Source: Kondoa subrosea (taxonomy: Eukaryota). From it: a stretch of DNA of 64,000 nt. The notes below the pieces were generated by a model that saw only the letters and a program-made list of their open reading frames with translations, was not told the origin of the DNA and made no database searches. The stretch is from contig BCIN01000002.1 of assembly GCA_039545335.1 (NCBI GenBank), positions 1,625,118-1,689,117 of the forward strand, given 5' to 3'. Below, one piece after another: positions 5,454 through 57,381 of the stretch. The number at the start of each line of letters is the position of its first letter. Position 1 is the stretch's first letter. The position numbers were made by a program, and so were the translations under genes.

Positions 5454-5608
5454 AACTCGTTCTAGTAGATGTATGTCAGTGTAGTAATAGATCGAGTTTA
5501 GTATGCATATACTTCGTTTAGGCTCCACTTTGATTGTAATCGAAGCTCAAGCATTGCCTTACATAATAATGGTTTCTTATTCCAAACAGTCACCTTTGGC
5601 ATTCAGGC

Positions 5609-8015
5609 ATGGAGGACTCGCAAGTACCCGAATTGACTGATGCACAGCAAGTCATCAAGGGAGCCCTGGCGCTCGACGAAAGTCAGCAAGACTTGGCCGC
5701 TTGGGACAACATGAGCGTATTGCTCGAAGTGTGGGATACAGTTGAGGATCACAGGAAAATGAATGTGACTGCAGCCAAAAGCTGTCTCGAAGAAGCAAAA
5801 ACGACACCCAATATCAAGCTGTCTGGTAAACCTGAAGATTGGAAATCGCTCAAACATAGCGTTCGAAGGGATGCGAAGGACGTAACGCTCTATCGCGCTG
5901 TTGGCCTCTTCTTACGCAAGCGACACATTGAGCATCTGCTAGCTCATGATTCGGAAACTGCTGGTGCAGATATACAAGGCGCTACTCAATTGTTCGCTAC
6001 CTATACTGATCGAACTCAGTCTCCCTTTTTCGATAATTTGACGGATGAGCAAGAACAGCAGTGTCAAAATGAAAGAGACAGCATCACGCAATATATCGAA
6101 GCTGTCCAAGAGCGGCTGAATATTTGGAAAGGAACCTCCAGGAAATCTGAACGGAAACAGCGAGCAGCATTAGAAGCTCTAAAAACTCTCACTCAAAGCT
6201 TTCGGCAACCTGGAGAAATACCATCTCTCGTCGAAGGCATTAATGCTCATGTAGCGAAAGTCGTTGCCGAACGTCAAGCTCTTGAACGTATCTTTCGTTC
6301 GATTAACGATGCCAGAACTCCTGCTCCACCTAGTCCTGCTGTTGTTGCCGTATCAGCTGCTGAAGAAGTCAGTCCTGCTTTGGCCGATGCAATGGACGAA
6401 GACGATGAATTACCACCACCATTGGATTTCGATAAACCTATTTCTCAACAAGCTGCAGCTACTACGAAGAAGCGAAAACGTCAAAGTACTGTTGAGCCTT
6501 CAGAGATGAAACGTAAAAAGAGGAAAGTCGATCCCAAAATACTTTTGCCCGGACTGCCTATCTTCCTATCGGAACATGAAAGAGACGTCCTTCATGCGGC
6601 GTACAGTGAGAGGAAGGATAGAAAGGAAGTGTATCAAACGGAAGAAGATGTTCGAGGTATTGCGAATGATCTCGGCTGGACCAATGAAGCCGTTCTTTCC
6701 TATCTTCGAGTATGTTCTGCTTGCAAAGAGTCACAGTCTCTTGCTTATTCTGTCGGAAGATGTATAGAGCAGCCATCGATGACGATTTCATCGAGAGGCT
6801 GAAAAGCAAGCTCACACCGGGAGAAAAGCTACTGCTAGAGAACAAATCTCAACACAATGAACAAGAACCACCGAATTTGAGTACATTTGAAGATCTGGAG
6901 ATGAATCTGCTTTCGTGGTCGCTTGCGGATCTTGAAAATTGGTTCGAGGTGAGCAGTTACAGTCCGCTGGCGGAATTTACTGATAGTTGAACAAAAGGGC
7001 CATTGCATCAGATGGGCTTTGAAAGAGCGCAAGCTATCAATACCTGTTGTCGTGAACGAACACTGCGAGCGAATACTAGAAGAAGCGTATCAGAAACAAG
7101 CTGGCAGAAAACTGAAGACAGCAGATGCTAAAGCGATTGTCGTTCAGCTCAAAGGTCCTGAAGCAACAGAAGCAGTAGGTTGGAAGTCCGTCAATGTACG
7201 ACAGTGGTTCAAGGTATTTCACATGATGTCTCCCGTGCTAGATCGAACTGATCTGTGCACAAAGAGACGTTTTGATCTGGAAAACTCAACGATGAAACCC
7301 ACCTCAAGAAAGTCATCCACGCGTACACGAACAAGTAGCAACAATTCTCCGCCATTCGAAATTCCCAATCTCCCAGCGGAAAACCTGTACTTGAGAAATC
7401 AAGAGCAAGAGCAAGAAGCTGCTGCAGACTCCGTCCAAGAACAACCAAAACCAGTGGAAACACCTCACAAACCACAGCTCGCACAAGACAATCCCATTAC
7501 GGACTCTGACTTCATCCTTGAACCCGAACCTGCTCAGTCTGCTGGCGAGTTTCAGCAGATACCTGCTGCTCCTGCTGGTCTAAGTACAGCATCGATACCT
7601 GAGGAAGGATCAGCTGCACCTGACGTCCAGGAAGAAGAGCAGCCTTCACCTTCTGTTCCTGTAGTTTCGAAACGATCCGCCAGAGAAGGCTACGAAGCAT
7701 TATGGGCAGCAGCGAAACCTTTGGATCCACATCTGATTCGAATCATACTTTCAATGGGCTTTACCGTCTCCGGTTCAAGACATTCACCTGGCAGGCCGAC
7801 TTCTATAGGCAGACGAGGGGGTTTCATGTCTCGAACCAAATTGAGCCGGGAAGAAAGTGGGTCTGTGATTGATGAGAGTATCAGTAAAGAAGAGATGCTG
7901 GCACCAGTGACGCAAATGCTGGCTGAGTATGGAAGCGAGCGAGAATTGGGATTAGTAAGCAATCCTGTTTCCCTTTTGCTTATAGAGTGTTGACCAAATT
8001 CTTTGTCAGTGGTAG
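5609..8015 (+). CDS. Uncharacterised nuclear protein with three degenerate homeodomain-like HTH repeats
   Basis: Long ORFs joined by GT-AG introns; NLS-like KKRKR and KRKKRK; repeats ending LGWTNEAVLSYLR, LSWSLADLENWFE and VGWKSVNVRQWFKRR. Confidence 0.6.
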
Positions 8016-8178: not shown

Positions 8179-9544
8179 ATGGGATACTCTGCAACAGAGA
8201 AGCTGAAGACTTCGATCAAGCGTTCAACGATAGATTATGTCGAGCTCGAGATTTGGCAGCATGATAATGAGGTTCTTTTGCATCGCAAACCCCTGCGCAT
8301 CTCTTCTAATGTGCGAAACAGTACATTAAGTCTGGCTACAGGCGACCTAATGGCTCCTATATGGCTTGTTTGGAGTCTTTCTTCACATGGCACAAGTTTG
8401 TCAATTCCGGGCTATCGCAAGGCAGAGATAATGTTTCATCAGCGAACTGGTCAACATGTGGACGCATCTGCTTGCTGCTTTCTTCTTCTTCATTATTGCT
8501 TGTGCACCTCTGTCGCCCGAGCTTTTCTCTACCTTGCACTACTACTTGGGCACCAGCCTGATCGACGTGTCTATTGCTTCCTGGCAAGAGACAGCAGCTG
8601 TGTACACGTTCTTGTCCGGAGCTGTATTTCTCTTTACTGCGTCATGGACCTTTCACTGCTTTTCTTGTCATTCCGCCAAGGTGAGCTGATTAATGTCTGG
8701 TTTCCTTCCTGTCTCATTAATCAGGTCTGCCACACTTGTAATGTAATAGATCATCTTGGTATTGGTATGCCCATCTATTCGACTGTCAGCGACATGTCTC
8801 ATCGGGAACAGTAACTTTGATCTGTACATCTTTCGTACCGGCTGTATATTTCGGCTTTTTCTGCCATCCGACACTTCGACTTGCATATTTGGGCATGATT
8901 ACCGTTCTAGGTAGCGCAACAGCTTACACGTATGTTCCCGATACGCCCGACACAAATTGACCTGATCCGGTGTGCAGTATGATCAATCCTGTCTTCAGAT
9001 GTAGCTCAACGTGTCTCGATGCACAGACATGTCACTGACCTGCTGATCTGAACATGATAGCACCTGAATACCGTCGTTTGAGAGCTTGGTTATTCATTGC
9101 CCTGGGAGCGTCTGCCGTCTTTCCAATATTACACTTCATCTATCTCGAGGGAGTGAGTTGTGCTCATGCTGATTCCTATATCATACTTATAATTTCCAGT
9201 TCGCTATGGCCCAAAAGACTTTCGGCTTGAATTACCTGCTCTTAGAAGGCTTTCTCTACATAGCCGGAGATGAGTGCCTGTGATCTGTTTGCAAATTCCT
9301 GGGCTGATTCTTTGAGGTCTCTACCCATCTTATACGCGGAGCGCTTTCCCGAGCGTATTTTCCCTTATACTTTCGACTATTTCCCATCGCATTCTATCTT
9401 CCATATCGGTAAGTTGTACTTCTCAAAAGTGTATCACTTTTGTTTATGCTATGCTATGATTTAGCTGTCAATCTAGCAGCCTACTCGCATTACATTGGGC
9501 TGAACGTCGCATTTCAGCACAGCAGAAAGATGCATTGCTCGTAG
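8179..9544 (+). CDS. PAQR / haemolysin-III family membrane protein (IZH/adiponectin-receptor-like)
   Basis: Spliced product has WQHDNEYIKSGYR, WHNELVNMWTH, SWTFHCFSCHS, IDHLGI, LYAERFPER and SHSIFHI, all PAQR signatures. Confidence 0.9.
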
Positions 9545-9794: not shown

Positions 9795-11366
9795 ATGAGT
9801 AGAGGCTCTGGCATCAAGATCCTGACTGGTTTGCTGTCGTGTTATAAGAGCAATAGCAATGCATGAGACTCCCTTGCAGGAAACAGTCATCCTACACTTG
9901 CTGCAGCTGTTGCTGAACGGTAAGCTTATCCCCGGAAACTGCCTTTTTTTTTTCTCGCTTACATTGTGCTGCTACAACTTAGATTGGGATTGCCTTTATG
10001 TCGTTGCACAGTCAAGAAATTCTCAGACAATGAGACATCCGTGTCAATCGGTGAATCCGTCCGCGAGGAAGATGTCTTTATCATACAAGTAAACCAACGT
10101 CTAGCGAGCGTATAGACTGCTCGCTGATGCTGTAAGAACAGACTGGCTTCAACCCAAATCCCTCAGTCACTTCTCAAGGATATTCGCGTCCACCTTCACC
10201 CACGCAACAAGCTCATTCACCAATCTCAGAAAAGCAGCCTTTCACCCCTCGTTATCAACCAGCAGCAGATCCGAATGATCTTCTTATGGAATTGTTGATC
10301 ATGATCTCGTAAGACTTCCTTCCTCTCTTTCAGTTCTACTTCAATTTGTCTCATATTACGAACAGAGCATGCAAAACTGCTTCAGCTAGAAGAATTACCG
10401 CTGTTCTGCCTTGTTTTCCTTATTCAAGAATGGACAGAAAAGATCGAGCTCGAGCACCTATCACAGCAAAATTAGTAGCCAACATGTTGCAAGTAGCAGG
10501 TTGTGATCGAGTCATTACACTTGATTTACATGCCAGTCAAATTCAAGGCTTCTTTTCCGTCCCAGTAGACAACCTTTGGTCGGAACCAATCATGTTGCAA
10601 TATATTAAACAAGAAGTGGAAGATTGGAAACATTGTATTATAGTCAGTCCAGATGCTGGTGGAGCGAAAAGGTGAGTCTGAGAACAATCGACCAAACCGA
10701 TGGCTTGTTGCTGAAGAAATCGGCAGAGCTACTACATTGGCTGATAGGCTGAACGTCGACTTCGCGCTCATCAACCGACAACGAAGGAAAGGCGACAGTC
10801 CAGACTCGCTAGGCAATATGGAGATCCTGGTTGGAAGCGTGCAAGGCAAAGTGAGCATCTCGGTGTTCTATATGCGCGCAACGCTAAAAGGTGAACTTAG
10901 GTCGCTATTCTTGTAGACGATATGTGCGATACTGGTGAAACTTTGGCTTTGGCTGTCAATACCTTGATGAAGGCGGGAGCAAGACGAGTGTTTGGATTAG
11001 TGTCTCATGGTGAGCGAGATTGATCATTTCCAATATAAGTGCTATCCATCTAACCTTGCGCACAGGTCTGCTATCTGGAGACGCTATCAAGATGATCTCT
11101 CATCTACCTATCGAGAAATTGGTTGTGCGTGATATTTCCTTGCGGCATGAAGGTTGGGTTTGACATTGATTGATACAGGTTACAAATTCTATCAACCAGC
11201 AAGAAACTTCGAAATATGCTTCAGGCAAGCTACAAACAATGGACATCTCACCCATGCTAGCAGAGAGTATTCGAAGGGTAGGCTTCTTCCTTCTGCTAGC
11301 CGGGCACTCGACTGATCGATGTAACAGACTCATAACGGTGAAAGCATGAATGCAATGTATGTATAG
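9795..11366 (+). CDS. PRS: Ribose-phosphate pyrophosphokinase family subunit
   Basis: [55 protein letters not shown] and LVDDMCDTG motifs. Confidence 0.92.
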
Positions 11367-11516
11367 ATAAATAGACCAGTATAGAGCCCTAGAGCTGTTG
11401 AGCGCATGCAATGCAAATGCATCCGCGAACCCTGCAGTTGTGACTGTTGATTTCGATCAGCGACTCGAACTACTATATACAAGACCGTCTATACCTGCTG
11501 ATACATATCATTAATC

Positions 11517-14798: not shown

Positions 14799-16062
14799 AT
14801 GTCCGCGCCACGAGCTTCCACTTCTTCCTCTGCTTCTCCTGCATCACCAAGTCGTCGCCCAATGATCAAGGCTCGCAAGGACAAGAGCGCTGCTGCTCCG
14901 CCAGTCGATAAATATTATGGCCAAAAAGGTAATAATGCGCATCACACTGTCACTAAAAATCACATGCTTACTTTATTTTACATTTACAGATCTGGCAGAG
15001 TTCTGCGAATACTTTGTGTCAAACATGTTCTGTCTGGCCTCCGACTGCCCTCAGTCGAGTCACCCGTCTACTTCCGACTCAAAAGAACCTCCTGCATTAG
15101 TACTCTTCATCGTACGTTTCCATTCTGCTCCTTCCACGTATAGACAGAAGCTGACCGGTGTTCTCATTACCTACATGCAGGCCTATGCGTTATATCGTAC
15201 AAGATTACCTACTTCAATAGTCCATCATGCTCTTTACCTCTTGCACCGCTTGAAGACTCGCTATCCCACAGCTCGCGGCACTTCCTCGTCTCCTCATCGA
15301 CTCTTCCTTTCAGCACTCATGCTGTCATCCAAAATTCAAATGGACGATACTTATTCAAATCGGTCGTGGGCGATCGTCGGAGGAAATTTTTTCGCCTTAC
15401 GTGAAGTGAATCAAATGGAACGAGAGCTATTTGCGTTTTTGGAGTGGAATGCAGTCGTGTCAAAGGGTGAATTGGATGCCTACACGGAGGTTATCGAAGC
15501 GGATTGGTCTGGTGTGAAATCAGGTCAACGTCAACAACAAGCAGCTGCAGTCGCGCGCTCGAGGAGCTTCATGGTCTCTTCTGCGGAACAACCAGTCATT
15601 GGCAAGAGGCGAAGAAGCGATACTGCTTACACCGAAGCTGCAATCGAGAAAGCTCAAGCACTTCGACACAAAAGAGCTGCCGATGCTGCTATTGCCTTAT
15701 TGCAGCCTTGTTCTACCACAGCGGCTCGCTATCGTCATTCTATCGATGGTCGATATGTTCAAGACTCTTCTCCAGCTCAAGCATCTTCAGCTACCTCCTC
15801 TTTCGTCTCTTCACCTTCCTCCGACCAGTTCTTTCATTACCATTCCTCTTCTTCCTACGCTACAAGTCCAGATACATCAAGCCCAACGTCTTCAAAAGGG
15901 CCAATCACACCAGAGGAAGCAGAAACTTTTGCAAGGTTCAACGATGTTTGTTCGGTGAACACCGAAGATTCCCTTCCGCCCTCCAAACAATCTTCTTGGT
16001 CTTCGTTCGCTAAACAAAGGTCTTCTCCGAGGATTCCTTCATCTCAAGTTGCAAGATCTTGA
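14799..16062 (+). CDS. Pho80/Pcl/Clg1-type cyclin
   Basis: Cyclin box FIAYALYRTRL...ALYLLHRLK...HRLFLSALMLSSK..MDDTYSNRSW...EVNQMERELF; S/P-rich tail. Confidence 0.88.
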
Positions 16063-16301: not shown

Positions 16302-18928
16302 TTACTTTGCCTTCTTGCGGCCTGGTACAATATTCGCACGACGCAGCGCGGGAAACAACAGTCCTTTCACTCACCTTTAGCAGCAGGTTTCTTTGCAGCC
16401 TTGCCCTTCTTGCCTTTCGGTAACTCTTCTTCCTCTTCCTCTTCCTCCTCTTCTTCGACGGCATCATCTGCTTTTCTCTTCTTGCTGTTAGTACTGCCAT
16501 TATTCTCGATCGGAACGTATTTTCCTTCTTTACAATTCGAACAGAACCAATCCGTTTCCGGTACTTGATCTAAAGGTACGCAAAGTAAATGATAGGCGTC
16601 CTCAAAACCCATACTCTGTTCAGCATTCATGAGATATGGCAATAGAAACGGAAATCTCACCTCGCATTTCTCGCATTCCAGAACAGGGTTCTTTTCATCT
16701 TCTTCACCTTCTTTCTCTTCTTTAGAACAAACAACACAAGTATCAGTCGATTCCAAGATCGGTGGGAACCTTTCCAATTCTTGCCATTTCTCCTCTTTTG
16801 TACTGGAAGGTTTGATATTGACTGAGCCTGGGATAGGCAGTAGAGCAGAGGAAGAAGCAGAAGGTGATGGCGCTGCAGAAGTAGTTTCAGCAGGTGCTTC
16901 GTCCAGTCCCCAACCTGCACTCATTAGGGATTGATATTCCACTGTTAAGTGAAATTGCTTACCTGCATCCCAGGAAGGCGCTTTCACTTCAGCAACAGAA
17001 GGTGATTCTGCTAAGGCGGAAGGTGGAGCAGGTGGGCGAACGAGGAAGAAAGTCGTATTCTGTCCTGCTGCCACATCAATGACATCCAGATCCACCAGAG
17101 GTTCTACACGAGTCGGCTGGACAGAGCGCATGAGTCAAAATTCGGAATTACAAGCTCTCGATGCTTACTTTGGTAGCGGACTTGACTTCTCCAACTCCTA
17201 ATGCAAGTTCGCCGCTGTAGCGTTCGAATTGTCCTTTAGCCGAGAGAAGCAGCAAAAGGCAACTCAACCCTTACTTTGCAGCATTTTGACCCCAAGCTAT
17301 GGAAACGACGTGATCTTTCTCTTCCGCTATAGCCCAAAGCGTCACACCTCCAGAAGCAATAATCTTCATTTGATACGATTGGATATCTTGAACGGTCTTT
17401 GGATTCATCCCTTGATCTGACATCAGCTTTGAAATCAAGAAGACTGGCAAAGACTGACAAGGTTGACCGGAGGAACCATCACCTGAATTTTTGAATTTGC
17501 CGCATATGTATAACATACGCTGACCATCTAGGAACATGGAACAACTCTGACCTGCGGCGATCTTGGTAGCTCGCATGATTCGCTTTGGGTGAGTGAAGGA
17601 GTCGACAATAGTAGGTACAAGGTAGTCTTTTTGCACGCCGTGACCCTGCAGACTCGTTCAGATCTAGTTCCAAAGTGGCACTGAACAACACTCACAAGTC
17701 TGCCAAATCCACCATGACCCCACGAATAGACTGCAATCTGTCAGTACGCTGCAAATTGGACGAAAAGGATTCCTCACCATAGCCATCCTTGTCAAGAGTA
17801 ATAGTATGTTGCTGTCCACAAGCTATATCAATGATCTTCTTGCCTTCCAAAGCACCTTTTACCAAGATCGGTCTAGTTTCGCTTTCGAAATTGACTTTGT
17901 TGCCTCTGAGGAATTCTCCATTCTGTAGACAAAGAAGTTTTTTCTAAGCTATGCAGGTAGCGTTTAAGAAACTTTCTGGCCTACCTTTCCATGACCTAGC
18001 TGTCCTTTTTCCGGACAACCGAAACTATAGACTTTCCCACTTTCACAAAGGACAACAGTGAAATTGATTCCAGCAGAAGCTTTGACTACTTTCTCCTTCT
18101 TTAGCGGACCTTCAATGAGGGTGAATTCCATGACATCTTTTCCGCCGCTATCAATTCCACAAGCTCCATATTGATTCGCTCCCGATGCGTATATTGAACC
18201 AGTAGCGGTAATAAGTAAAGTATGTGATCTACCACAAGCAGCTCCAACGATCTTGGCGTCTTTCAAACCGGAAGGTAATGTAGATAGAGTGGATAGAGGA
18301 ACGGGTTCAATATATTGAGATTGACTGGACCCGAGTTGACCATGATCGTTTCTGCCTACTAACCAGGCTTGGTGAGACGTATCAATAAAGATTGCATGAC
18401 AACCTGAATGAGAAGTATGAAGGGAAATGAAGGCTATATTGGCTACTGAGCGAAGTATTTGCGGTTCTAGTAGATCGGGCCGACTAGGAATCAATCCTGA
18501 GTGAGTAGATAAGGAAAAAGAGACGACTTAAACGCACTCAAGATTGGCGGACGACTTTTCTGCAGCTTTCTTTCCCGTTTGTTTTCTTCCGCTATCAGAA
18601 TTGTCAGACAAGAGGAAGACGTTCAGAGACGAATGCTTACAGAGTAGGCCAATCAGTACTGTAATCGGAAATCAGCCAAAATCGAGTCAAGCATGCGGAA
18701 AGCCCTACCCTCCAGCGATTAAGACTAAACAGAATACCGGCAGTCAGAATGATGTTTTGGCAATATGAGGGAAGGAAAGAGCGCGTGATGAAGCGAGAAA
18801 CGTGATAAATAAGAAGGAAAACACAAGACACGAGGGGACACGTCTCGATTTAGGAAATGGGATGAAGGACAGCAGGGAACAGGATCCTTACCTCTTCCGA
18901 AGACCTGCTTAGTGTCCGCTTTTGACAT
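16302..18928 (-). CDS. RCC1/BLIP-II repeat protein (RCC2-like) with C-terminal PHD finger
   Basis: VLIAGGTDW start; RCC1 repeats GRNDHGQLG, ACGRSHTL, SAGINFT and WGHGGFGRLGHG; PHD CVVC...CEKC..YHLLC...WFCSNC; acidic/basic tail. Confidence 0.85.
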
Positions 18929-34772: not shown

Positions 34773-36409
34773 CTACTTCTGAGCTGCTTTCTTTGCAGAC
34801 ATTGTCTTCTTGGCTTCTGCTATCCTTCCACTCAATTGCCCTGCTTTGGCTAATTGAAGCAATACTTCCGCCGCTAGACCAGTACAATTGTGTCTTCGCA
34901 ATGTATCTGGTAGTAAATCAGCACCCATGACATATAATGGGCCAGGCGCTGCTCACTCTCGAAAGCCCATCGAGATCGTTTTTGCTGTTCATCCGACAAA
35001 TCCGCTTGCAATTGCGCGATTCGACCTTGCGCGTCGGCTTTTGCACTTTCGTCTGCTACGCTTTGGGTTGTAGCTATAAGTGAATCGATTTCGGACTGTA
35101 AGCTGGCTATTCTATCTCCGACAACAGCCATGAGATTGAAGTTTATCTGTAATATTGGGTGAGATTCGGGGGCTCGATTGAATGGAAGCGGACGTACTTC
35201 ACCAACTGCATAGGTTTGCATTCGAGTCTGTATAACTTCAGCTGCTTTATCTAGCCAAGCATCTTTTCCTCCAGGAATTGCGCCATGCGAGAGCGGAAGC
35301 GCTTTCAGGCCGTCGAACTCATACCTATGAGTCTTCCGTTGAGCTAAATCAAGGCAACTTGTTTGAATGCTTGCTTACAGCTCATCGCCTAATGGCATAT
35401 AAGCGCAATAATGGTATCTTTGCGTATGTCAACGATTTTTATGTGTAGATCGTCAGAAAGGGTGACTTACGCGTCTTCCTTCTCGTCGCGATCATTGCTG
35501 AGTTCATCCAACGCAAAAGGATCACTGCACTCATGGGTTAGATAAGCACAGCAACAATGAAGAAGGTGCATACTTTCTCGCAAAGGAATTGTGCACTTTG
35601 CACGTCCAAATCAGCTTATACATAGGAACATGGAAAGACTGCCAAACCTTCTCTAATCTTATCACTGTTTGTCAGGACATGACCTGTTGCAGCGATCAGG
35701 AATTGCGGTCCGTAGATGAACTTGCACTCACCTCTAGTCTCTGGATCGAGAGAGGAAGAGAAAGAATGCAGGTTCGAGAGTTCTTCACCTAGTTCGACTT
35801 TTGGTGATTCGATATTGAGCAGAACATTGAGGATTGCAACTGTGATTTGCATTAGTAGCGCAGATATCTAGCTTAGATCTGTACACACTAGTTGCGCAAG
35901 CGTTCGTTATCGTTTGTTGAGCAAAATAATGCTCTTGAGCAGGCTCTTTCAACGTTCCAGCGGATGGTGCACTGTGCGACTATTAGTCAATCGACAGCAT
36001 GATACGCGAAGAAGCAAACCCACGCAGAAGAATCTCTCCATTTGAACAGGAAGATCAAAGCATAGCTGGAACAAGCTCAGACAAACCGCTTTACGGGCAA
36101 TTCAAACACGACTAACACTGGCTTCAAATGCTCCAGTAAGGAAGGATCCAATCCATATAACTGTATACCAGTCGATTAGACGAGCTTCTCTGCAGCATCT
36201 CTCGTAGCTACCTCTTCAAACTCGATTCCCTTGACCCCTGAGCAGTTGCGAGTAAGCCGAAGATATGGCGCGCATTTTATAAGCATACCGAGATCTCTGT
36301 TGACAACACTAAAGCATCAGATAATGACACACACATTTCTGTTTCGTATAACTCACTCAACGAGCGCAGTGAAAATACTGGGATCGGAGACAGTCAACGA
36401 CCACGACAT
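34773..36409 (-). CDS. UCH37: Ubiquitin C-terminal hydrolase UCH37/UCHL5 (peptidase C12)
   Basis: SDP.IFT, ALIFLFKW, FAQQTITNACAT, VHNSFAR, DAYHY, YEFDGL and the C-terminal EN.LRRHN domain. Confidence 0.92.
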
Positions 36410-36717: not shown

Positions 36718-38784
36718 ATGTCTACTCATCACGATATTGACGACGAGAAGAAACCTTTGCTTGATCAGAGATCAGGAAAGCAAGCCAGATTGTCCTGGCC
36801 TGCTCGTTTCCTGATTGCCGCCTCCCTTGTACTCGTCTTCGCTACCTTGGCCACTCTTTCCGTTGTATCCCGCTCTCCATTGCTTCCTGATCTTTACGAC
36901 GCAACTGTATCAGATCTTCAAGATGGTTTGTCAGCAGGACATTTCACATCGGTTCAGCTAGTTCGGGTAAGTCTTTGTCTTGTTACAGTCTAGTATCGCT
37001 CAATCCCGGATAGGCATACCAAGCAAGAATGCATGAAGTGGACCATCTCAATGCGATAATACAGATTTCACCTTTTGCTGTGCATGAGGCGCGTGAAGCC
37101 GATCGACAGAGAGCCAAAGGAAGGTATTCGCCTCTCTTAGGAATTCCTATAGTGGTCAAGGACAATATCTGTACCGAAGGATTAAACACTACAGCAGGAT
37201 CTTATGCTCTTTTGAACACAAATCATAAAGATGCTGAGGTGATTAGGAAGTTGAGAGAAGCTGGAGCAATCATACTGGCAAAGGCTAACATGGATCAATG
37301 GTACATCTCTACATGCTCGGAAAGTCGGAAGCTTACAGCCGCACAGGGCTGCCTTCAGGGATTATAAAACAATATCTCAAGGATGGAGTGCCGTGGGTGG
37401 CCTGACGACAAGTCCTTTCTTCAAGAACGGACAGCCCCAAGGCTCTTCCGGTGGCAGTGCGGTAGCTGTGAGCATAGGTTTGTGTCCTATTGCGCTGTAA
37501 GCTGTGTGATTCTCACTTCACCAGTCATATCTGATCTGGATTTAAGGGGAACAAGTACAGGCGGGAGTGTAGAAGGACCAGCTTCACAAAACAATGTCGT
37601 GGGTATACGTGCGACTCAGACCGATGTGTCGCTTGATGGAGGTACGTTGCCTCCCGATCGAAACCCTTCAGTTCCGCTGAGATGCTAGCCCAGTTGTTCC
37701 CCTTACACATCGATCTGATGTGGTTGGACCTTTAGCCAATACTGTGGCAGATGCAGCCTTAGTGCTCACAGCCATCGCAAAGACTGGTGTCAATTACAGC
37801 CAAAGTCTAAGCACCGAAGCTTTGTCTGGCGTTCGCATTGGTCTTCTGCGAAACTCGGATTGGCAATTGGTCGACACTGTAAATCGACGAGAATACGAGA
37901 AGTCTGCAGAGCAGATCATGTCCAATCTGGGTGCGAAAGTCGTAAGTGTAGACCTTGCTTTAATGGACGAATTCCATGATTTGGTATGGGATAAAAGTAT
38001 GACAAAATTTACAAGTCTTCCCTTTCTTCGCTAAAGTATTCTCTTGTCGGCTCAGTTTGGGCTTGTGATTTCAAGCAAGATCTCGCATCATATCTAGAAA
38101 ACCTCGAGTAAGCCTCTTGACTTTGCGAGAGCGTGCTCTGATTACCGTATGTAGCTCTGTTCCTTCAGGCGTGCGATCAATTGCGGATGTTTTGGCATAC
38201 GATATTTCTCACCCAGAATTGGAGCGTCCTGCAACATACGAAAGCCTAAAATACTTGCTTCTTGCGAACTCTTCCGGGTCCGCTAATGATCCTGAACACG
38301 TAGTTCAGGCGGAACACCTGCAACAGCTCGCTCGTCGAATGATAGACGCGGCCCTTGTCAAACACAATGTTTCTGCTCTGGTCTATCTTGCTCCATTCAC
38401 CAGACCTTCTGCATATGCTGGTATGTGGCTGCTACATTACCTTTTCGACACTGATGACAAATGCCAAGGCTATCCGACTGTCATCGTACCTGCTTTCTTC
38501 CTACCTGCAGATGTCGAGCCAAGAATGTCTCAGCCTGAGATGCATCACCCTATCCAGACATACGACATTTATCCAAACCAGCCCTTTGGACTATCTTTGT
38601 GAGCTGACAGCTAGTTTCCCGAATTGCTTCGATTGCTAATAGTATGAATAGCACTGGAACAGCAGGAACTGATGCAGAACTCCTCGGCTTCGCATATGCC
38701 TTCGAGCAAGCTACGCAAATTCGTCTGAAACGCAAGACTTACCACGAGGCACAGCCTAAATCTCAGCTGGCGGATGTGAAGTAA
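36718..38784 (+). CDS. Amidase signature family enzyme with N-terminal TM anchor
   Basis: LLGIPIVVKDNI, TTAGS.AL, AGAIILAKAN, GSSGGSAVAV, GTSTGGSV and GYPTVIVP. Confidence 0.9.
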
Positions 38785-39099: not shown

Positions 39100-42000
39100 C
39101 AGACTGCTCAACTTCTAGTTAGACCTAATTTGCCGAATGATGTGCAGTTGACTTACATGGCTTGCCACCATACTGCGATCCGTATTGTGACTGCTGTGAG
39201 TAAGAATCGTAACCGTTATTGTTCATTCCCATATAGTTTTGTGCCATGCCATGCGACATCATGTTGTGATCATTTTGTGGCATTCCTCCGTACCCGCGCT
39301 GACTAGATGGACCAGTAGGAGGATTGAAAGGATGCTGCGTGCCAACATTAGGAAGGACATCGATATCGACCGAAAGTAAGCTCACCTGCTGTCGCATAGC
39401 GCCGTTGTTTCCATAACGGTCGAATGACGAGGAGGTCGGAGAAGGAGAGGGCATAGCATTCCCGTAGTTGCCGCCGTAGCCGCGATCACCACCGCCGTAC
39501 TGATTTCTCTGACCATAGCCCTGATCTTGCTGGAAGTGATCAGTTGGTGAGAAACGGTCCATTCCCGAATGACGATCTGCTCCAGGATGGAACCTATCTT
39601 GACGATCACCTTGATAGCGATCTTGTCCATCGAATAAGGCTTTGATGTTTTGCGAATTGCCTTGATTTCGATTGAAAGATGGTTCATCTTCGCCAGGCAT
39701 TCCACCTTGGGTTGCAGTAGAGCCAGATTGTATACCAGCTTCCTGTTGGGCAGCAGCAGCGGCAGCGGCGGCAGCAGCTCTAGCAGCAATACCAGAGCTA
39801 CCAAACAAAGCAGAGTTGAAATGTTGGAAAGGATCGGAAAGAGCTTCGCCTTTGGGACGGGTAGTTCCGGGGTATAGCGTGATCTGTTCGTGATATTGAA
39901 CTGATATTCGCAAATAGTCATGAAATTGCTCACATTGTTAGAAGTCAAGAAGTCTTCTATTTGATCGCGCGCAGCACCGAGGAAGTCCATGTTACTGCGA
40001 TTGAGGCAGAAGCGCAATACAGTCTCTTCACCTGCTCCACTTCGGTCAACCCAAGGTAGAATCGTAATGTTCAGATCGTGCTAAAGCCGAACATCAGCGG
40101 AAATCACAAGTAACAATTCAAACACACCTTGATCCTTTCCGTCAAGGTAGTCCATTCAGTTCCGAGCACAAGCTGAGACATCTCTTGACTGTGGGGCAAT
40201 CGCATTTCCGCTTCAAAAGGAATATGGACAAGCAACATTTGAACAGCGATATGAATTTGACTTTCTGGACCAAAGATGTGGACAACATCACTAGCTGACT
40301 CCTTATTTGGGAATCTGAAGATGGAGTTGGTCTTTGCTTCGATATCATGAATGAATATGCTCTTCTCGCCGAGCAGAGTTCTGTGATAGCGACGTGGAAT
40401 TGTAACCGATTCGACTACAAAGTCCTTGTCGCGTGGATTGACTAGCTCCATAACGGATTGTTTGAGATACTCGAGATTGTATGCGTTCTTGGCTGGAGTG
40501 CGAGCCACGACATTGTCATCGTTATCGAGATATCCACCTAAAGCAGCAAACTCTTCAGCGTTGGAGAATTTAACATATACACCATACTGCCGAGCGATCA
40601 GCATTTTGTTGCATCGGCAATTTCTATAATTCACTCACTTTCTTCATGATGCGCTGAATGTTTTTGCCTCCGACGCCGATGATGCGCTTGTGGTAAGCTT
40701 CAGGAACATGGAATGATACTTCAGCAGGTAATTCTTCTTGAAGCATACTTAGGCCTTGCAAAGCGCCAATGTCGCTTCCAGCGATGTCAATCAAGAAATT
40801 GTAGTCGTTGAAAGTTTCAAACTTGATCTTAACATTAGCAGTCTTCATTACTTTGTTCAACTTGCCGTTTTTCTTTCCGCTGATGAATTCGCGGTGCTCA
40901 TTTGCCAATTCAATCTGGAAGCGAATTTCATGATGGAAAGCCTGCATATCCTTTTAGACCAAGTACGCATTACACGAACTCGGGAGCTGACCTTGACCAA
41001 ATCTAATTCGAGGACAAGCTGAACAGCTGTTCGCACCTCGGACTCAAGACCATGAAGTTCAAAGCAGCTCGACTTGAACACTGCTTCGGCTCCAGAAGTG
41101 ATTGAGATATGTTCGAGAATAGCAGGAACTTGAGCAGGGTTGATGGTTGGAGGAGGCATAAACACATCGAAAGAAGCAGGCAGAAGCCAGAAGGAAGCAA
41201 CATAGAATTGACAGGCCTGGTTATCGATTAGCTATTATCAATACAAATTCGGAGGAAGCATACCATTTGCATAATCGAGCGAATAGTCCTCTCGATATTG
41301 ACACGATGATCACCGTAGACAGAAATTAGACTGGCTTGACTACCGACAACGGGGAAATTGATAAAAGTTCCGTTGTCATTCATGCTCTGCTTGACTTCTT
41401 CGAGACGCTCAGTCAAGATCCAGTCCAGCTTTCTTGGCAAGATAGCTGCATCACGAGAAATGATGCATTTGCTCTGTGTGATGGATTAACGCAATAGACA
41501 TGTACTCAATGGAAGAGCTGACCTTATGCATCGAGACTTGGAATAACATATCTCTAGCTCGCTGAACTCCAAAGAATTCACCGGTGATAAAGATCAAATT
41601 CTGTTTGGCAAGCAGGCCAGGTACTTTTGCACCCAACACGCCCGAAAGAGGTGAGGGAAAGTAAATGTTGGTACCAGTCTCTTCTTGGATAGTCTGAATG
41701 ACACATCGCTTGCGGCCAGCGATAATATTGTGCAGCTTATAATCTATTTCGCAAACTTCAGAGTGTAGACCGCTCTGTCGGCAAGTAAGATGGAGTTATC
41801 CGCAAGCCAGTGAACACGCACTAATTCGTCCAAAAGAACCAACAAGCGGACGCGTGCTTGTTCAACCGATTCATAACTGCCAGTGATGACAATCTCGACG
41901 TTGCGCTCCGTCTCCAAGCCAAATCCAATCTGGCCAGCCATTTGACCGACAATAGCCAAATGAGCTTTAGTCAATGAAGCGATTTCATCTAATTTGCGTC

Positions 42001-42994
42001 GCATTTCAGCTTTTACGTTTTCCTTTGCATCCAAAACTTCTGAACGAGGAACTTTGACTACAGACTTGCGCTGTAAGAGTTGGCCGTGTCAGACTTCAAC
42101 CACGATATCTCGAAAAACATCACTTTACCTTGAAAGGCGAGTCGCGCAAAATAGCTCCCCGAGCACCCATAACTTGCTGATACCCACCAGACAGATGGAA
42201 ATGGAAGCCTTTGCCTTCAGGCATGCCGACCAGAACATTGGAAGCTCCAGCATTAGCAGTAGCAGCTTCATCAGAGTAAGCCTTTTGCGCATCATTGGGC
42301 TGAGGCATAGAAGGATCAGCTCGGTTGGGGAAATCGACTTTGCTGTGTTGGACCATGCACTGATGTTGAGACATGACTTCACTAGTGAGCTTTGTCATGC
42401 CTTCGGACAATTCCTGAACCGTTCGGGCAGTAACAGCTGCAGCAGCAGTAGAAGAAGCGGTTGACGTAGTGGTTGTACGAGTAGTGCCTTCAGTGTTGTT
42501 GGTCAATCTTTCCACAGAAGATTCGGTATTGGCAGTAATAGCGGAAGAAATCGATTTTCTGCTTCCAGCACCTCCAGCATCTCGTTCACCACGGACAGCA
42601 GCTTTGCTTGGATCCTCTAGATTGCTGTTGCTCTCATCTGGTTTGGGTGATTCAGTGGAGGGGAAAGGGACACCGCCAGCCTGAGTTTGCTCGGGAGGAG
42701 AGTTGCGAGCATTGTTGGTATCACCAGCTGCAGCAGAAGGAAAAGTGCTGTTGGTAGGCGATTCGATGACCGAAGTAGGGCGAGAATTGCTGCTATTCTC
42801 TTCAAAGCCTGCGTTGAATGCTTGACCGCCCTGCTGTGACGACGTTTGCCTCGGTATATCAACAGCTTGACTGTGTGTCACAGAGTGCTGCGGGATACAG
42901 AACGAAGCTACAAAGGAGAAGCAGGAGAGCACAACAGTTGGCAAAGAGACCAAGACAAAAAATGTGAACGCAGCTGACTTGTGTATATATCCAT
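39100..42994 (-). CDS. Multi-KH-domain RNA-binding protein with low-complexity G/Q/N/Y tail
   Basis: KH loops HNIIAGRKR, FISGKKNGK, HKRIIGVGGKNI and HRTLLGEK; both termini approximate. Confidence 0.8.
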
Positions 42995-43586
42995 GATCAA
43001 GGAATTTTGCGGTATTGGGTGTCCAGCGACTGGTAAAGCGCGAGAGGATGGTTGTTATCAAAAGTTCCCTTCTTATAAGACAGCCTGAGGGTATCGGAAA
43101 AGTCTGGTTTCCATGAATTCTAGGAATGAACAACTGGATTCGTGGAGTAGAGCTTCGGCTACTCACGAGCAAGTAGCACCGAGTATCACTGATGTCCCTG
43201 TCGACCGGTATATGGTAAAGAAAATGAACAGTTTGGGAGCAAGATAATCCAAAAGTCGAGGTCGGAGGTGGTCTGCGATGCAACGGGTAGTCCGCGAATC
43301 AGGTACTACTATTCAATGACACGCTATCTATGCGAGCCATTTGGTCATTGTAGTAGATTATACATCGAGCACAGCTTTCGCTAGATTGTAACCTGTTCGA
43401 TCAACTCTTCGGGTTGAAGGATGTATTAATACACACAGAGTGTGAAGCCATTGTCTGTGACTTCGGATCATCAGCCAAAGAAGAGTAGGGAGTTGACTAA
43501 ACTGACTTGTGACACGCGCCCTACTTAAATGAATCATTCGAAGCTGACTTCTCGTGATCTTCGCCCATGCGGCTGAATGGTGTCTT

Positions 43587-45022: not shown

Positions 45023-46215
45023 ACTGCGTCTTGCTATAGCAGCCAGATTGAGTATCGACGTGCGAGCAGAACAGAGGGCTAATTTAGCTGACGAGAAGTT
45101 GAAACGCGCGATCAAATCGCTGGTTGAGCATTAACAATACTTGGCTTTGACAGCTCCTGTGCTTCGGCAGAATGTCACATAGGTGCTGCAAGGCCTCAGT
45201 TGAGCGATGCCTTGAGTGTGCACCTGATGCAGCCAAAACAGAGCGTCAAAAGCAGCAAAAAGAGCAAAAACGTAAAAAACGTTCAGTCTAGCCTTAACGG
45301 CGTTCAAAGATTCCCAAAAGTCCTAAGACGAATGGAGATATAGGATTTAATTTGCAATAAGCAATTCGAAGCGACTCGGCATAACCTCACTGTTAAAGAA
45401 GCGTAGGCATGAGCGACCAAATGTTGCTGCTAGGCAGGTCTTAGCTTACCTGTCTACTTCAAAACCCGAGCACAAAGATAAAAGTTTCGCTCTTTTTCGT
45501 TGACCTGTATATATGCTTCTAATGAAATTTGTAAAGCGTTTCCATCATGAATTTACGAAACTTGCCTGTTTGCCTTGACGCTCGATAACAGTGTTTCGAC
45601 TTGCTACACAATCCGACCTGACAGGTGATCTGATTGGGAATAGCTGTACGGAGAAGATTGAGTCATGCAAAGATGGGAAAGCGAGGACGTTCACCTCTCA
45701 TCGATTTAGGCATGCTCATCGAATTAGAGCTCCAAATGCGATTTGCAGAAGGTCACGAGTATTCCCTCGAACAGAAGTATAAGTAAGACTTCGAGTCTTT
45801 GTATGGAATGCATACTAGAAGAGAAAGTAATGCTGACAGGCAATTCCGTAATTGAGTGAGACGATGTACAATAATGGACGGAAAAGATAAAGCGGCAAGA
45901 ACACAGCAGTCAGTCAATGACTACATGTGCTGTGACACGGATCATCGCAATGCGTCTGCGGAGATGACGGGTACCCCCCAGCAAGAACACGGAAGCAGGG
46001 AAAAAAGCAAGAGACTGAAGCGTGTGGCTTTATACTGGGCGAATGACTTATACTGGTCGAAGAGCACGAGAAGGGAGAGAAGAGCACGGAAACTTAGAGC
46101 GATGCTTCATCGGCAGACATTGAAATACTTGCATCGCAAATGTGCTGTGTAGTCATATACGCCAGTTGATTATCGGCAGCTTGACTTTCTGGTCTGTGCT
46201 TGTTGAGGTTGCTCT

Positions 46216-47758: not shown

Positions 47759-49173
47759 ATGCCTAGGCTGTTCCCCGAAATCTGGGAGCTGGTGTTCGAC
47801 GAATTAATCGCTCTGGACGAAGACTATGCGCAAAGTCATTTGCTGCCTCTATGTCAAGTCAGCAGTGTGTTCAATAATGTTGGTTAGCTGCCAAGCTTGA
47901 TCTGATGCGAAGTCCAGAGGAATTCTGCGGTCTCGCACAGCCTAGACTGTTTCAAGATATCTCACATACACAACTCACACATCCTCAGCTGGCTCTGACG
48001 CTGTTCAAGAAGCCAGAATTTGCTTCCCATGTACGAAGAGTCATTTGGTCGATATTGGCGTTCTCAGACGAATGTCTCTTCTCTCGTCTTTCCTTCTTTT
48101 CGCACAACGCGCCTGCGCTGGCAATCCTACGATTGTGTCACAACATCACCACACTGGGACTAGGTCGTAGCTTCGTTCATCGGCGGACCATCAAGTCTGA
48201 TGTGGAGGAGAAAGACGCAGCTACAGCATCTGAGCTTATGGAAACTGCATCTCTGCCGTTTCTTCCTGGTCTTCGTTCGCTTCAGATTAGCCTGTCTTCC
48301 TCTACTTTAGGCCGAAGATGTGTCAAACAGAATCATAATATCCTAATCTGGTTCTTGCAAAACACTCGCATCGAGGCTCTTTCTACCGGGTCACCAATCC
48401 GAAGCAGTGATCTTGACGGTCAACCCCTCCTTTCTTATAGTCAACCTTTATCCAGTCTGAAAACTCTGGAAATTCTTTACGGAAGCAACCCAATTCTAGT
48501 ATGGCAGCAAATGCTTCCCTACGTATCGCGACTTGTCATCAAAGGCTCCGCTTCCTCAAGAGTAATCTTCCGTACAAGCGCTCCATCTATGCTCAATCAG
48601 TCAAATCTTGTTCGAACGCTCGAAATTTACCGCTATACTCTTTCGAAGCCACCAACGAGAAGCTTCGATAGTATCTTTCCTGGATGTCGAGACTGGCGAC
48701 TAGAACTAGATGCTAGCTTTGCGGATCACAGTCACTTCGTGATGTGGAAGTTGCAAGATCATATTCAAGCTCTTTTCCCAACGAGCACATATGCGCCCAG
48801 CTTATCTTCGGTACGAATTACGCTCAATGATCCTTACCATCTTCTTTTGCAACACGCCGTATCTCTCCAGAAAGATCCATCTTCCTACTTCCAGTGCCTC
48901 TGCAATGATGAAATACTACCTGGTCTCAAAACCTTGACAATCCTGCATAAGCTCGAATCGGCTGAAAACACCGTTGAGGTTCTACAATTGGACAAGAAGG
49001 ATCCAGCTGAACACGTTCTTGATCGGTTTCTTCGTGAAGATCTAGCATACCTGGCTAATCACGCCACCAATGAACTGCAAATCAGTTTTATATACACTTG
49101 GGCCGATAGGAGGGAGTGGAGGTATGAAGTAAGAGGTACCAATACCGTTAGGAGAGAAATCTACTATGTATGA
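47759..49173 (+). CDS. F-box-like / LRR-like hypothetical protein
   Basis: MPRLFPEIWELVFDEL...LLPLCQVSSVFN...QPRLF F-box-like motif and LxxLxI repeats. Confidence 0.6.
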
Positions 49174-54618: not shown

Positions 54619-57381
54619 CTAATTAACAAAAGTGGATGGGAACTTTGCTATGATCCCATGTAATTGACCGGTCCACTAAATAAACACTCAGTATTTCATC
54701 TTGCACAATGTGAAAACGAAGAAGGACGAACCCAACCATCGGCGCCTTGTTCAATGACCGCTATTTCATCGCCCGCATGGAAAGTCAATTCATCGGGTCT
54801 GCAAGCTGTGTACGGATGGGCAGCTCGAACTACTCACAAGCAAAATCAGCATATAATGTAATGGCAGATCAAGCGAGACATCTCACCATAGAACATAATT
54901 TGTTGCGAGAGACGATGCGATTGCATCAAGCTAGGTTGACTAGGCGATGAGTACATGCTTTGTGGATGTGTAGGCGATTGAATTGGGCTGGCGTAGGAGA
55001 AAGATTGATGAGGCGATTGCCAGTTCTGAGGACTTGTCGGCTGTTGAGCATAACCAGTATGCGCAAGAGGAGGAGAAAGAGGTGTGTTGCCTCGAGAAAT
55101 TGGAGTATGTTGTCTGCTGATCGGTGTACCTTGTCGATACTGGTCAAAGTTCTGTACGCTTTGGCTACGTTGACGGTTGAAAGAAGGTCGAGAGGCATTG
55201 TTGACGCTTGGCGGTTCGAGAGCTTCTTGTCTCGTGAAGGTAGCTAGTGACGGCACGGAGGGTGAAAGTTGCAAAGAACCGTGTCTACCATGTCCGTGTA
55301 CAGGAGAAGGTGATCGAGTAGGCATTCTCGAGTTGTCAGGAAGGTTCAAATGATGAGCTTGAGGGTGAAGTGATTGTTGTCTGCTGTCTTGATATTGGTA
55401 AGGTTCAACAACGAAAGGTGAGGGAGCTCTTCCAAACATTGCATTAGGATTGGGAGAGACAGCTCGAGTAGGATTGGGCGAAACTGCTCTGGCTTGACCA
55501 AGAGGTGGAGACATGACTGGATCGAAAAGCGTATCTTTGGCTGGAGCAGTGTAAGCCAGCACAGCTGGCGAAGCTGTCCTCTTCTCAGCCCAAGACTTTG
55601 GCTCGTGCGAAGAAGGAGCTGAAGAAGGGAATCCACGATCGCCTGAAGCTGTTCTTCTAGGGAAAGAATTGGCATGATGACCCTCTGCCAAGCCTGCCGG
55701 TCTTCGAAGTTGAGCAGGTGAGATGGTTGGATCTGAACCTTGTCTTCTACTTGGTGGAGGCGTAGGCAAACCTCCTCGTCTTGGTTTCACATTAAGATTG
55801 TCCAGTGCTCGTAAAACGCCTTGTTCCGCCTCTTCCTTCTCGGGTGATTTCGATCTAGCTCGTCTTGATATCGGCGAGTCTTCAGTATTGCCTATGTCCG
55901 ATCCAGGGGAAACATCGACTGGGAAGAGGTGGTTACCAATACTGAGCATAGTGCCAGCTTCCGTCAAAGGCGATACATTTGACTTAGATGATGCAGGTGA
56001 TCCTTGAGCTTCTGATTTGAGCCGAGTTACTCTATTGAAAGGCGGCGTAGACGTCCCAATTTCTGGTCTGGAACTTTTGACTGGTTCGAAGTCGTCTTTC
56101 GTAGGCGATGCAGCAGGGCTTGGTTGCTCAGAATCAGGTGTAGCAGCTCGATCGAGAGAATTATACGAGTCAGAGGGCCGCAAAGTCTGAGTTCCAGGAT
56201 AACGGAAACTTGAGCGGGAGAAGCAAGCTTTTCTAGTTTTAGGTGCAGAGGGTTCTTCTTCACCTTCTCCAAAGTTGATAAAATCAGGAGCAACTATTAT
56301 AACCATCAGCAGCAGCACTCATTCAGCGCTATTCTTTGTTAACCTTGCATTAGTCCTCCTGCGCTCTTCTGCTGCACGAAGGAAGCCACGGCATCGGATG
56401 TGTCCCAAGCATCTAAAGCTAGCTTGAGCTTCTTCATCGGCTGCAGCAAAGGAATCAGCCACCTGTCATAATGTCAAAGAGATAGTTTCCTCACCTGCTG
56501 ATCTGTCTCGCTTGCATCCCCATATAGATGACCGTACTGCAGCAAAGTCTCCCTAATGACATGTACACGATCTTCCTCTAGATCCTCAGCCAGATCACAA
56601 AAGCTTTTCCACTCGAATTCGAAGTTGCGACATGTTTCCTTGAACTGCTTGATGCCAGATTTATAATCTACTTCAGTCTTCTTGATCGACTTCTTTGCTT
56701 TCTCTAGATCAGATTTGACCTGCATGAAACCGTTAGACGAAGCCGCTGTTCTAATTTGGCAGATTTACCTTGTTCAGATCTTTTCGCTTGAGCAAGTTCA
56801 ATTGAGTGTTGTAAGAGCGAATAGCAAGCGCATCAGCTTTGTAGCGTTCTTTCCGGTCAGTAAGCTCTTGCTCAGTCTTTATCTTCGCCTTATGCAAAGT
56901 TGTTACAGCTGCTTGATGCTGAGAGTTACATTAATTCAACAAAGACACCCAATGGATTTTTTAATCCCAACTCACTTTGCGTTTCCTAGTCTCTCGAGCA
57001 GCTTCATGATCCTTCATCTTGGCTTCCAACTGTACAGCAATATCATTCGATAGCTTCTCATGCGTTTCTCCTCTTGCAGCTAATGAAGCCTTGAATTCGC
57101 TTAAGGAGGACGCCAGACCAGGTTCATCTTTACCAATAGAAATGCTAGAGATCTTCTTGAGCTGTTTAGCGTAATCTTTCTCCAGAGCAGCCCTGGAAGC
57201 ATGGCAGGGAAAAATCAAAACAATGTATGACAAGAGATAAGGGAACAGCAAACAGCTCTTTGAAGACAGTACGTAGATCGTTTAACGTAGCAGAAGAGGC
57301 TACAACATGCGATAATAGAGTTTCTTCGCCTGCTTTCGACCAAAAAGCATTCACGAATGGCACATAATTCGATGGTTCCAT
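54619..57381 (-). CDS. F-BAR/SH3 cytokinesis protein (Cdc15/Hof1/Imp2 family)
   Basis: FVNAFWS start, AALEKDYAKQL, FCDLAEDLEEDR, S/P-rich linker and C-terminal SH3 (ELTF.AGD.I.V...DGWWTG...FPSTFV). Confidence 0.85.

Follow-up and report, generated by a model that had tools for sequence, protein, structure and literature searches.

The window analysed here, a 64-kb stretch of DNA, carries on its forward strand a gene of the PAQR/HlyIII family, one intron of which appears to begin with AT and end with AC. As its sequence reads, the gene is intact and intron-rich, and the features on which the argument turns are the following.

8179-9544, + strand: PAQR/HlyIII (AdipoR-like) gene, 10 exons and 303 aa in the model with the AT-AC intron
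8179, + strand: start codon ATG of the PAQR gene
8272-8321, 8396-8442, 8681-8724, 8765-8811, 8930-8977, 9001-9060, 9153-9199, 9270-9324 and 9409-9464, + strand: introns of the PAQR gene, 9270-9324 being the putative one
8978-9000, + strand: micro-exon of 23 nt, between introns 8930-8977 (GTATGT..GCAG) and 9001-9060 (GTAGCT..ATAG)
9153-9199, + strand: intron 7, canonical (GTGAGT...GCTGAT...CCAG), 47 nt, phase 0, unambiguous
9200-9269, + strand: exon 8, 23 codons and the G of a split codon, with most of the predicted sixth membrane helix
9270-9324, + strand: proposed AT-AC intron, 55 nt, phase 1, donor AG/ATGAGT, 3' end CTCTAC
9274-9316, + strand: competing GT-AG intron, 43 nt, donor GTGCCT, acceptor TTTGAG, with which D-E-S-L-P would replace A
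9325-9408, + strand: exon 9, in which CC completes an Ala codon and ILYAERFPER...SHSIFHI follows
9409-9464, + strand: intron 9, canonical (GTAAGT...TTTAG), 56 nt
9542-9544, + strand: stop codon TAG of the PAQR gene

The exon pieces of the gene were searched singly and not as a joined sequence, and membership of the PAQR/HlyIII family (PF03006) is given by a significant profile match of exon 3 alone. This exon (8444-8680) scored 32.2 bits against the Pfam HlyIII profile, at a cut-off of 26.2, over profile positions 6-69, and its alignment reaches residue 129 of AdipoR1 (chain 5lxg_A). Exons 5, 7 and 9 matched the same profile below threshold, at consecutive positions (87-120, 134-159 and 187-214): residues 2-35 of exon 5 correspond to AdipoR1 145-178, residues 1-30 of exon 7 align free of gaps with AdipoR1 191-220 and AdipoR2 193-222, and residues 2-27 of exon 9 fall on AdipoR1 246-272 and AdipoR2 248-274. 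The motif FHCFSCHS lies opposite FHTVYCHS of AdipoR1, and SHSIFHI opposite SHQIFHV; we take the residues of both motifs to have a zinc-binding role. A colinear seven-helix core with conserved His- and Asp-bearing motifs can thus be predicted, which points to the AdipoR-like class of PAQR proteins. With 9270-9324 removed, the spliced coding sequence amounts to 912 nt, with a single, terminal stop and no frameshift.

The micro-exon supplies exactly the number of residues (183-189) that AdipoR1 has between the anchors at 178/181 and at 191, and in two of the eight homology-defined introns, 8272-8321 and 9001-9060, the donor is weak and +5 is not G (GTTCTT and GTAGCT, respectively), both introns being needed by the AdipoR homology. 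Exon 8 gave no match in Pfam or the PDB, either alone or together with its read-through, and it could be placed because intron 7 is strong and because of the number of residues between the AdipoR anchors. A homologue search with the 66-aa ORF at 9264-9461, confined to longer proteins, brought up two candidates that shared words with it, neither of which was scored, and searches with the locus in prokaryote genome contigs and in viral contigs returned 142 and 10 pattern matches, respectively, none of them confirmed.

At the end of exon 8 the sequence reads ...TAC ATA GCC GGA G up to 9269, and if translation continued through AT GAG TGC CTG TGA it would hit the stop at 9281-9283 (ORF 9173-9283). 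The frame of exon 9 (ILYAERFPER...) cannot be extended upstream beyond the stop at 9261-9263 (ORF 9264-9464). Since the one frame ends at 9281-9283 and the other is closed at 9261-9263, the gene requires an excision, and this excision, shifting the frame by one base, must fall between them. The stretch 9270-9324 begins with ATGAGT, ends with CTAC and has GCTGAT at 9303-9308, of which A 9307, the putative branch point, stands 17 nt before the 3' end. Its removal joins G/CC and gives ...YIAG-A-ILYAERFPER.... The bases, the read-through stop and the junction peptide are all as quoted in the original prediction, which had proposed a rare AT-AC intron of the major spliceosome at this place.

Which excision is the right one was addressed by enumerating all combinations of GT, GC or AT starts with AG or AC ends that keep the frame of exon 9 and are free of stops. 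Thirteen such excisions were found, and only four of them leave exon 8 whole, namely AT-AC 9270-9324 (55 nt), GT-AG 9274-9316 (43 nt), GT-AG 9280-9316 (37 nt) and AT-AG 9283-9316 (34 nt). The prediction that 9274-9316 is the only GT-AG option therefore fails, the 37-nt intron being in frame as well at the price of six additional residues. Mixed pairs that spare exon 8 (AT-AG or GT-AC) were rejected as out of frame, except for the 34-nt AT-AG, which adds seven residues. Two further candidates were also set aside: a nested twin intron, 55 nt being too short for two introns, and A-to-I editing of the first intron base, which would leave the AC end unmended.

Counting residues against the known structures separates the four options. 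AdipoR1 has 24 residues between 220 and 245 (5lxg_A), and AdipoR2 likewise has 24, between 222 and 247 (5lx9_A); the AT-AC model yields 24, the 43-nt and 37-nt GT-AG models 28 and 30, and the 34-nt AT-AG model 31, and among all 13 excisions 9270-9324 alone yields the number found in AdipoR1. The HlyIII profile gives the same picture, with 27 positions from 159 to 187 that are filled by the three residues left of exon 7, the 23 of exon 8 and the one of the split codon. The canonical junctions 3/4, 4/5, 5/6 and 6/7 reproduce the numbering of AdipoR1 exactly (129, 130-143, 144-181, 182-190, 191), and since these junctions are free of indels we regard colinearity as a fair yardstick for the disputed one. 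It should be added that, exon 8 having no database match of its own, colinearity across junctions 7/8 and 8/9 is fixed only as a sum.

The splice signals were assessed against a local set of 38 putative GT-AG introns, comprising the eight homology-defined introns of the PAQR gene and 30 picked by a filter for donor pattern, branch pattern, YAG and ORF bridging; the matrices built from this set are partly circular, as the filter had fixed positions +3, +5, +6 and -3 in 30 of the 38. A set chosen by ORF bridging alone was dropped, its 88 'unique' candidates having G at +5 in only 21 cases and being swamped by false positives. Donors of U2-type GT-AG introns, which are recognised by U1, follow the consensus CAG/GTRAGT, and the AT-AC donor GAG/ATGAGT agrees with it at seven of nine positions when +1 is counted as a mismatch, within the range of the local introns, which agree at five (n = 15), six (n = 7), seven (n = 13) or eight positions (n = 3). 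When +1 and +2 are left out, the donor context GAG/ATGAGTGC scores 5.78 against a leave-one-out local mean of 3.60 (sd 2.44) in the partly circular matrix, a value equalled or exceeded at 0.26% of the positions in the window, and the 3' context reaches 1.66, the local mean being 0.59, again in a partly circular matrix. The donor hence fits the GT-AG consensus except at +1, as would be expected of a U2-type AT-AC intron.

Length and branch-point spacing had been predicted to match those of neighbouring introns. As to length, 55 nt does lie inside the local range of 44-69 nt, a range taken from the 38 putative GT-AG introns and so partly from motif-selected ones; as to spacing, 17 nt falls within the 9-22 nt of the strict set but on its long side, most of these introns having 11-13 nt. 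The rarity of the motif itself did not withstand scrutiny. By chance alone, ATRAGT..CTRAY..YAC is far from a rarity: it occurs six times in the window on both strands, and when ORF bridging is added, AT-AC is left with two sites against a control mean of 3.2. Under the same strict filter GT-AG had 19 sites, compared with a mean of 3.2 (maximum 12) over 127 control dinucleotide pairs, so that the two AT-AC sites amount to background; a looser filter was barely specific, with 67 donors for GT-AG and 71 for GA-AG. As the AT-AC motif is at background level, the signal lies in where the motif sits and not in its existence. The case for an AT-AC intron is one of predicted protein colinearity, not of motif scans.

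Among the alternatives, the one that survives best is that a canonical GT-AG intron is removed, either 9274-9316 or 9280-9316, leaving four or six extra residues near the cytoplasmic end of the sixth helix, and we judge it to be unlikely. Such an intron has canonical ends, is in frame and stop-free, and uses the AG that is the first downstream of branch A 9307, at a distance of 9 nt that is within the local range. Its donor GTGCCT is only one base off the GTGCGT type that is common locally and, as two other PAQR donors also lack G at +5, is not to be dismissed on strength alone; however, it matches CAG/GTRAGT at no more than four of nine positions, and its context scores -0.33 (-1.94 for the 37-nt option), with a 3' context of -4.99 for the 43-nt intron. 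The acceptor would be GAG, whereas all eight homology-defined PAQR introns have C or T at -3 and none has G, and with 43 or 37 nt the intron would be shorter than every one of the 38 local introns (minimum 44).

The consequences for the protein weigh against this explanation as well. Gap-free colinearity with AdipoR1, AdipoR2 and HlyIII would be broken by 28 or 30 residues in place of 24, and the additional stretch (D-E-S-L-P or D-E-C-L-S-L-P) would land in the hydrophobic part of the sixth helix, bringing two acidic residues and a proline into it; the best 19-residue Kyte-Doolittle window drops from 1.59 in the AT-AC model to 1.06, or to 1.26, in the GT-AG models, the former value being that of the 43-nt intron. 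A weak sign in the same direction is that the local Pfam match to the exon-9 frame begins at the I of ILY and stops short of S-L-P. Furthermore, a GT-AG intron would demand three coincidences, namely an A with TGAGT directly behind it, four bases upstream, a terminal AC in just the register that restores colinearity, and the re-creation of an Ala codon at the junction. If 9270-9324 is removed as an AT-AC intron, by contrast, the inner GT is simply positions +5 and +6 of a consensus donor and an in-frame AG near the 3' end is unremarkable.

Somewhat less probable still, and in our view doubtful, is that the intron has become unspliceable and marks a recently disabled gene or allele, in which case the transcript would retain 9270-9324 and the protein would end after ...YIAGDECL, lacking helix seven along with its histidines. 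The AT-AC ends are indeed non-canonical, and rescue of a G1A change by a terminal C has been described as less efficient (PMC1557818). Against decay stand the other 303 codons and eight introns, all intact, and the improbability that neutral hits would strike exactly the first and the last base of one intron and produce an A...C pair.

A true intron reading GTGAGT...CTAG, with 9270 and 9324 as assembly or sequencing errors, we consider very improbable, as it takes two independent base errors at both ends of a single 55-nt intron, in a window free of N and of any other mark of poor quality. What lies outside the five readings discussed here received an even smaller share of our confidence.

That leaves removal by the minor spliceosome, which we hold to be the least credible of the readings in spite of the terminal dinucleotides, which are those of most U12-type AT-AC introns. 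U12-type introns are marked by /ATATCCTT or, alternatively, GTATCCTT at the donor, and by a branch site resembling TCCTTAAC that precedes the 3' end by 10-15 nt. Neither is found in 9270-9324, which thus shares only the terminal dinucleotides with U12-type AT-AC introns: the donor agrees with /ATATCCTT at two of eight positions, and the best match to the U12 branch consensus, TCTTTGAG, agrees at five of eight and does not keep the consensus AA. This absence of U12 donor and branch motifs is, besides the donor, another mark expected of a U2-type AT-AC intron. The only snRNA gene in the window is of the major type, and a survey of more than 3000 genomes came upon no convincing minor introns in either Ascomycota or Basidiomycota (PMC10639083), a point that bears on the present case with the reservation that the phylum assignment here is weak. 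On both matters, the U12 donor ATATCCTT and the lack of minor introns in Dikarya, the original prediction agrees with PMC5029451 and PMC10639083.

The host is a fungus. Short introns occur in the window in the genes for uS2m, PRPP synthetase, a cyclin, an RCC1 protein, an amidase and others. For both uS2m and PAQR exon 3 the closest Atlas clusters carry the label 'commonest Ascomycota', which gives a slight indication of a dikaryon, and by analogy with such fungi the lineage is likely to be one without the machinery of the minor spliceosome. The snRNA gene mentioned above, the only Rfam match in the 64-kb window, is a U4 snRNA (RF00015) at 45291-45479 on the - strand, which scored 48 bits at a gathering score of 46 over the full length of the model.

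Taken as a whole, we consider it probable that the PAQR gene has a genuine spliceosomal intron with AT-AC ends at 9270-9324 and that the major, U2-type spliceosome excises it; both the splicing at 9270/9324 and the agency of the major spliceosome are what we infer from the genomic sequence. The preference expressed in the original prediction for the AT-AC intron over the GT-AG options is supported, indirectly, by colinearity with AdipoR1, AdipoR2 and HlyIII, by the donor, by the absence of U12 signals and by the otherwise intact state of the gene. An AT-AC intron has a low prior, since such pairs account for only 0.019% of the introns annotated in fungi (PMC7072748); the prior is low too for a 43-nt GTGCCT/GAG intron that inserts D-E-S-L-P into a conserved helix. 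Two further observations count against the AT-AC intron. The AG at 9315-9316 lies between branch A 9307 and the proposed AC, and in ordinary introns an AG past the branch point is normally used; and the distance from branch to 3' end is 17 nt, compared with a local mode of 11-13 nt and with the 9 nt of the GT-AG intron, which is also in range.

If 9270-9324 is such an intron, its removal might proceed as follows. U1 and U6 would recognise the donor through its remaining consensus bases (AG/AUGAGU), and the GCUGAU branch site would be paired by U2. At the second step the first and last bases of the intron would interact as A-C in place of the usual G-G pair, as can be supposed by analogy with published work on yeast and human mutants, and this interaction may be what allows the AC at 9323-9324 to be used while the upstream AG at 9315-9316 is skipped. 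The spliced mRNA would then encode the full seven-helix PAQR receptor.

Introns of the U2-type AT-AC class were recognised as early as the 1990s, and both the class and its mechanism are established. Engineered G1A and terminal G-to-C double mutants in yeast and humans carry the same pair of changes as 9270-9324 in an otherwise consensus U2-type intron; they reportedly go back to Parker and Siliciano in 1993 and others, and are said to be the source of the A-C mechanism for the second step. These mutants are laboratory constructs and less efficient, whereas 9270-9324 would be natural, presumably constitutive, and situated in an essential part of the coding sequence. Rescue of G1A by a change of the last base from G to C, at lower efficiency, has been described in both yeast and human (PMC1557818), and rescue by a terminal-base change, together with natural U2-type AT-AC introns that have a GT-AG-like 5' splice site, is likewise treated in PMC5029451. 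The natural class, termed 'AT-AC II', is defined by AT-AC ends together with a 5' site that conforms to the GT-AG matrix when +1 is A; Sheth et al. (2006) counted 15 such introns in human, 6 in mouse and 3 in fly, but not one in worm or Arabidopsis (PMC1557818).

The AT-AC II introns of human SCN4A/SCN5A and TAF2 share with 9270-9324 the AT-AC ends, a 5' site like that of GT-AG introns except at +1, the lack of U12 motifs and great rarity (PMC1557818). There are differences as well. The published consensus of the class is /ATAAGT (PMC5029451), against /ATGAGT in 9270-9324; the latter is short (55 nt) and of fungal type, with a CTRAY branch and no polypyrimidine tract, unlike the animal introns; and these have been proven by splicing assays and are conserved in orthologues, whereas the present intron is deduced from protein colinearity alone.

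In fungi, U2-type AT-AC introns have already been hypothesised for xylanase genes of filamentous species (PMC1557818), and a search of the full-text literature for AT-AC together with Pezizomycotina or xylanase yielded nothing more specific, other AT-AC hits proving to be strings of polyketide-synthase domains. Annotated fungal introns number 2,302,340 in Table 1 of PMC7072748, of which the 0.019% quoted above are AT-AC, many of these pairs being doubtful. RNA-seq of Trichoderma gave 69 AT-AC junctions among 14305 TopHat junctions (PMC4324775). The first endogenous AT-AC junctions of S. cerevisiae were located inside the RPL30 intron and concern 1-2% of its transcripts (Gould et al., 2016, PMC5029451). 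Those junctions and 9270-9324 would both be instances of AT-AC splicing by an ascomycete that has no minor spliceosome, with the proviso that the status of the present host as an ascomycete is weakly supported; the RPL30 events, however, are a by-product at a 5' site that resembles neither consensus, while the frame requires 9270-9324, an intron whose 5' site is near-perfect for the U2 type.

We thus see in 9270-9324 a plausible addition to a rare class already described and not a new kind of intron, and it opens no new question, because the class and the mechanism are established. If the AT-AC intron is real, it would be one of the few well-founded natural U2-type AT-AC introns in fungi and could provide a natural test case for A-C pairing of the first and last bases at the second splicing step. 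For annotation, gene predictors limited to GT-AG and GC-AG would truncate the PAQR receptor or put five wrong residues into a membrane helix. One may go further and picture an ascomycete devoid of a minor spliceosome whose major one constitutively removes a natural AT-AC intron, a wild counterpart of the compensatory double mutant of first and last base, perhaps kept because a slow second step or competition with the nearby GT-AG pair tunes the level of full-length PAQR protein; should relatives have GT-AG at the same site, the intron would also show a two-step switch in the act. This extended proposal is a speculative one, to which we would give only a small chance.

Some minor observations concern the surroundings of the gene. 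Four long open frames of 390-490 aa, at 54849-56318 (-), 47878-49170 (+), 42123-43298 (-) and 5570-6799 (+), are without a Pfam match at E <= 0.001. Other neighbours are housekeeping genes recognised by Pfam:

816-1718: uS2m mitochondrial ribosomal protein
14866-16059: cyclin
17967-18527: RCC1-repeat protein
34877-35374: C12 ubiquitin hydrolase
37014-37364: amidase
40107-40634: KH-domain protein
60586-62258: WD40 protein

The uS2m protein scores about equally against the yeast and Neurospora mitoribosome chains. Directly 3' of the PAQR gene, at about 9860-11500 on the + strand, lies the gene for PRPP synthetase, with several short introns; its exon 10313-10672 matches Pribosyltran_N with 69 bits, and the exon at about 10140-10310, read by eye, appears to contain a Ser/Pro/Gln-rich insert inside the conserved N-terminal domain.
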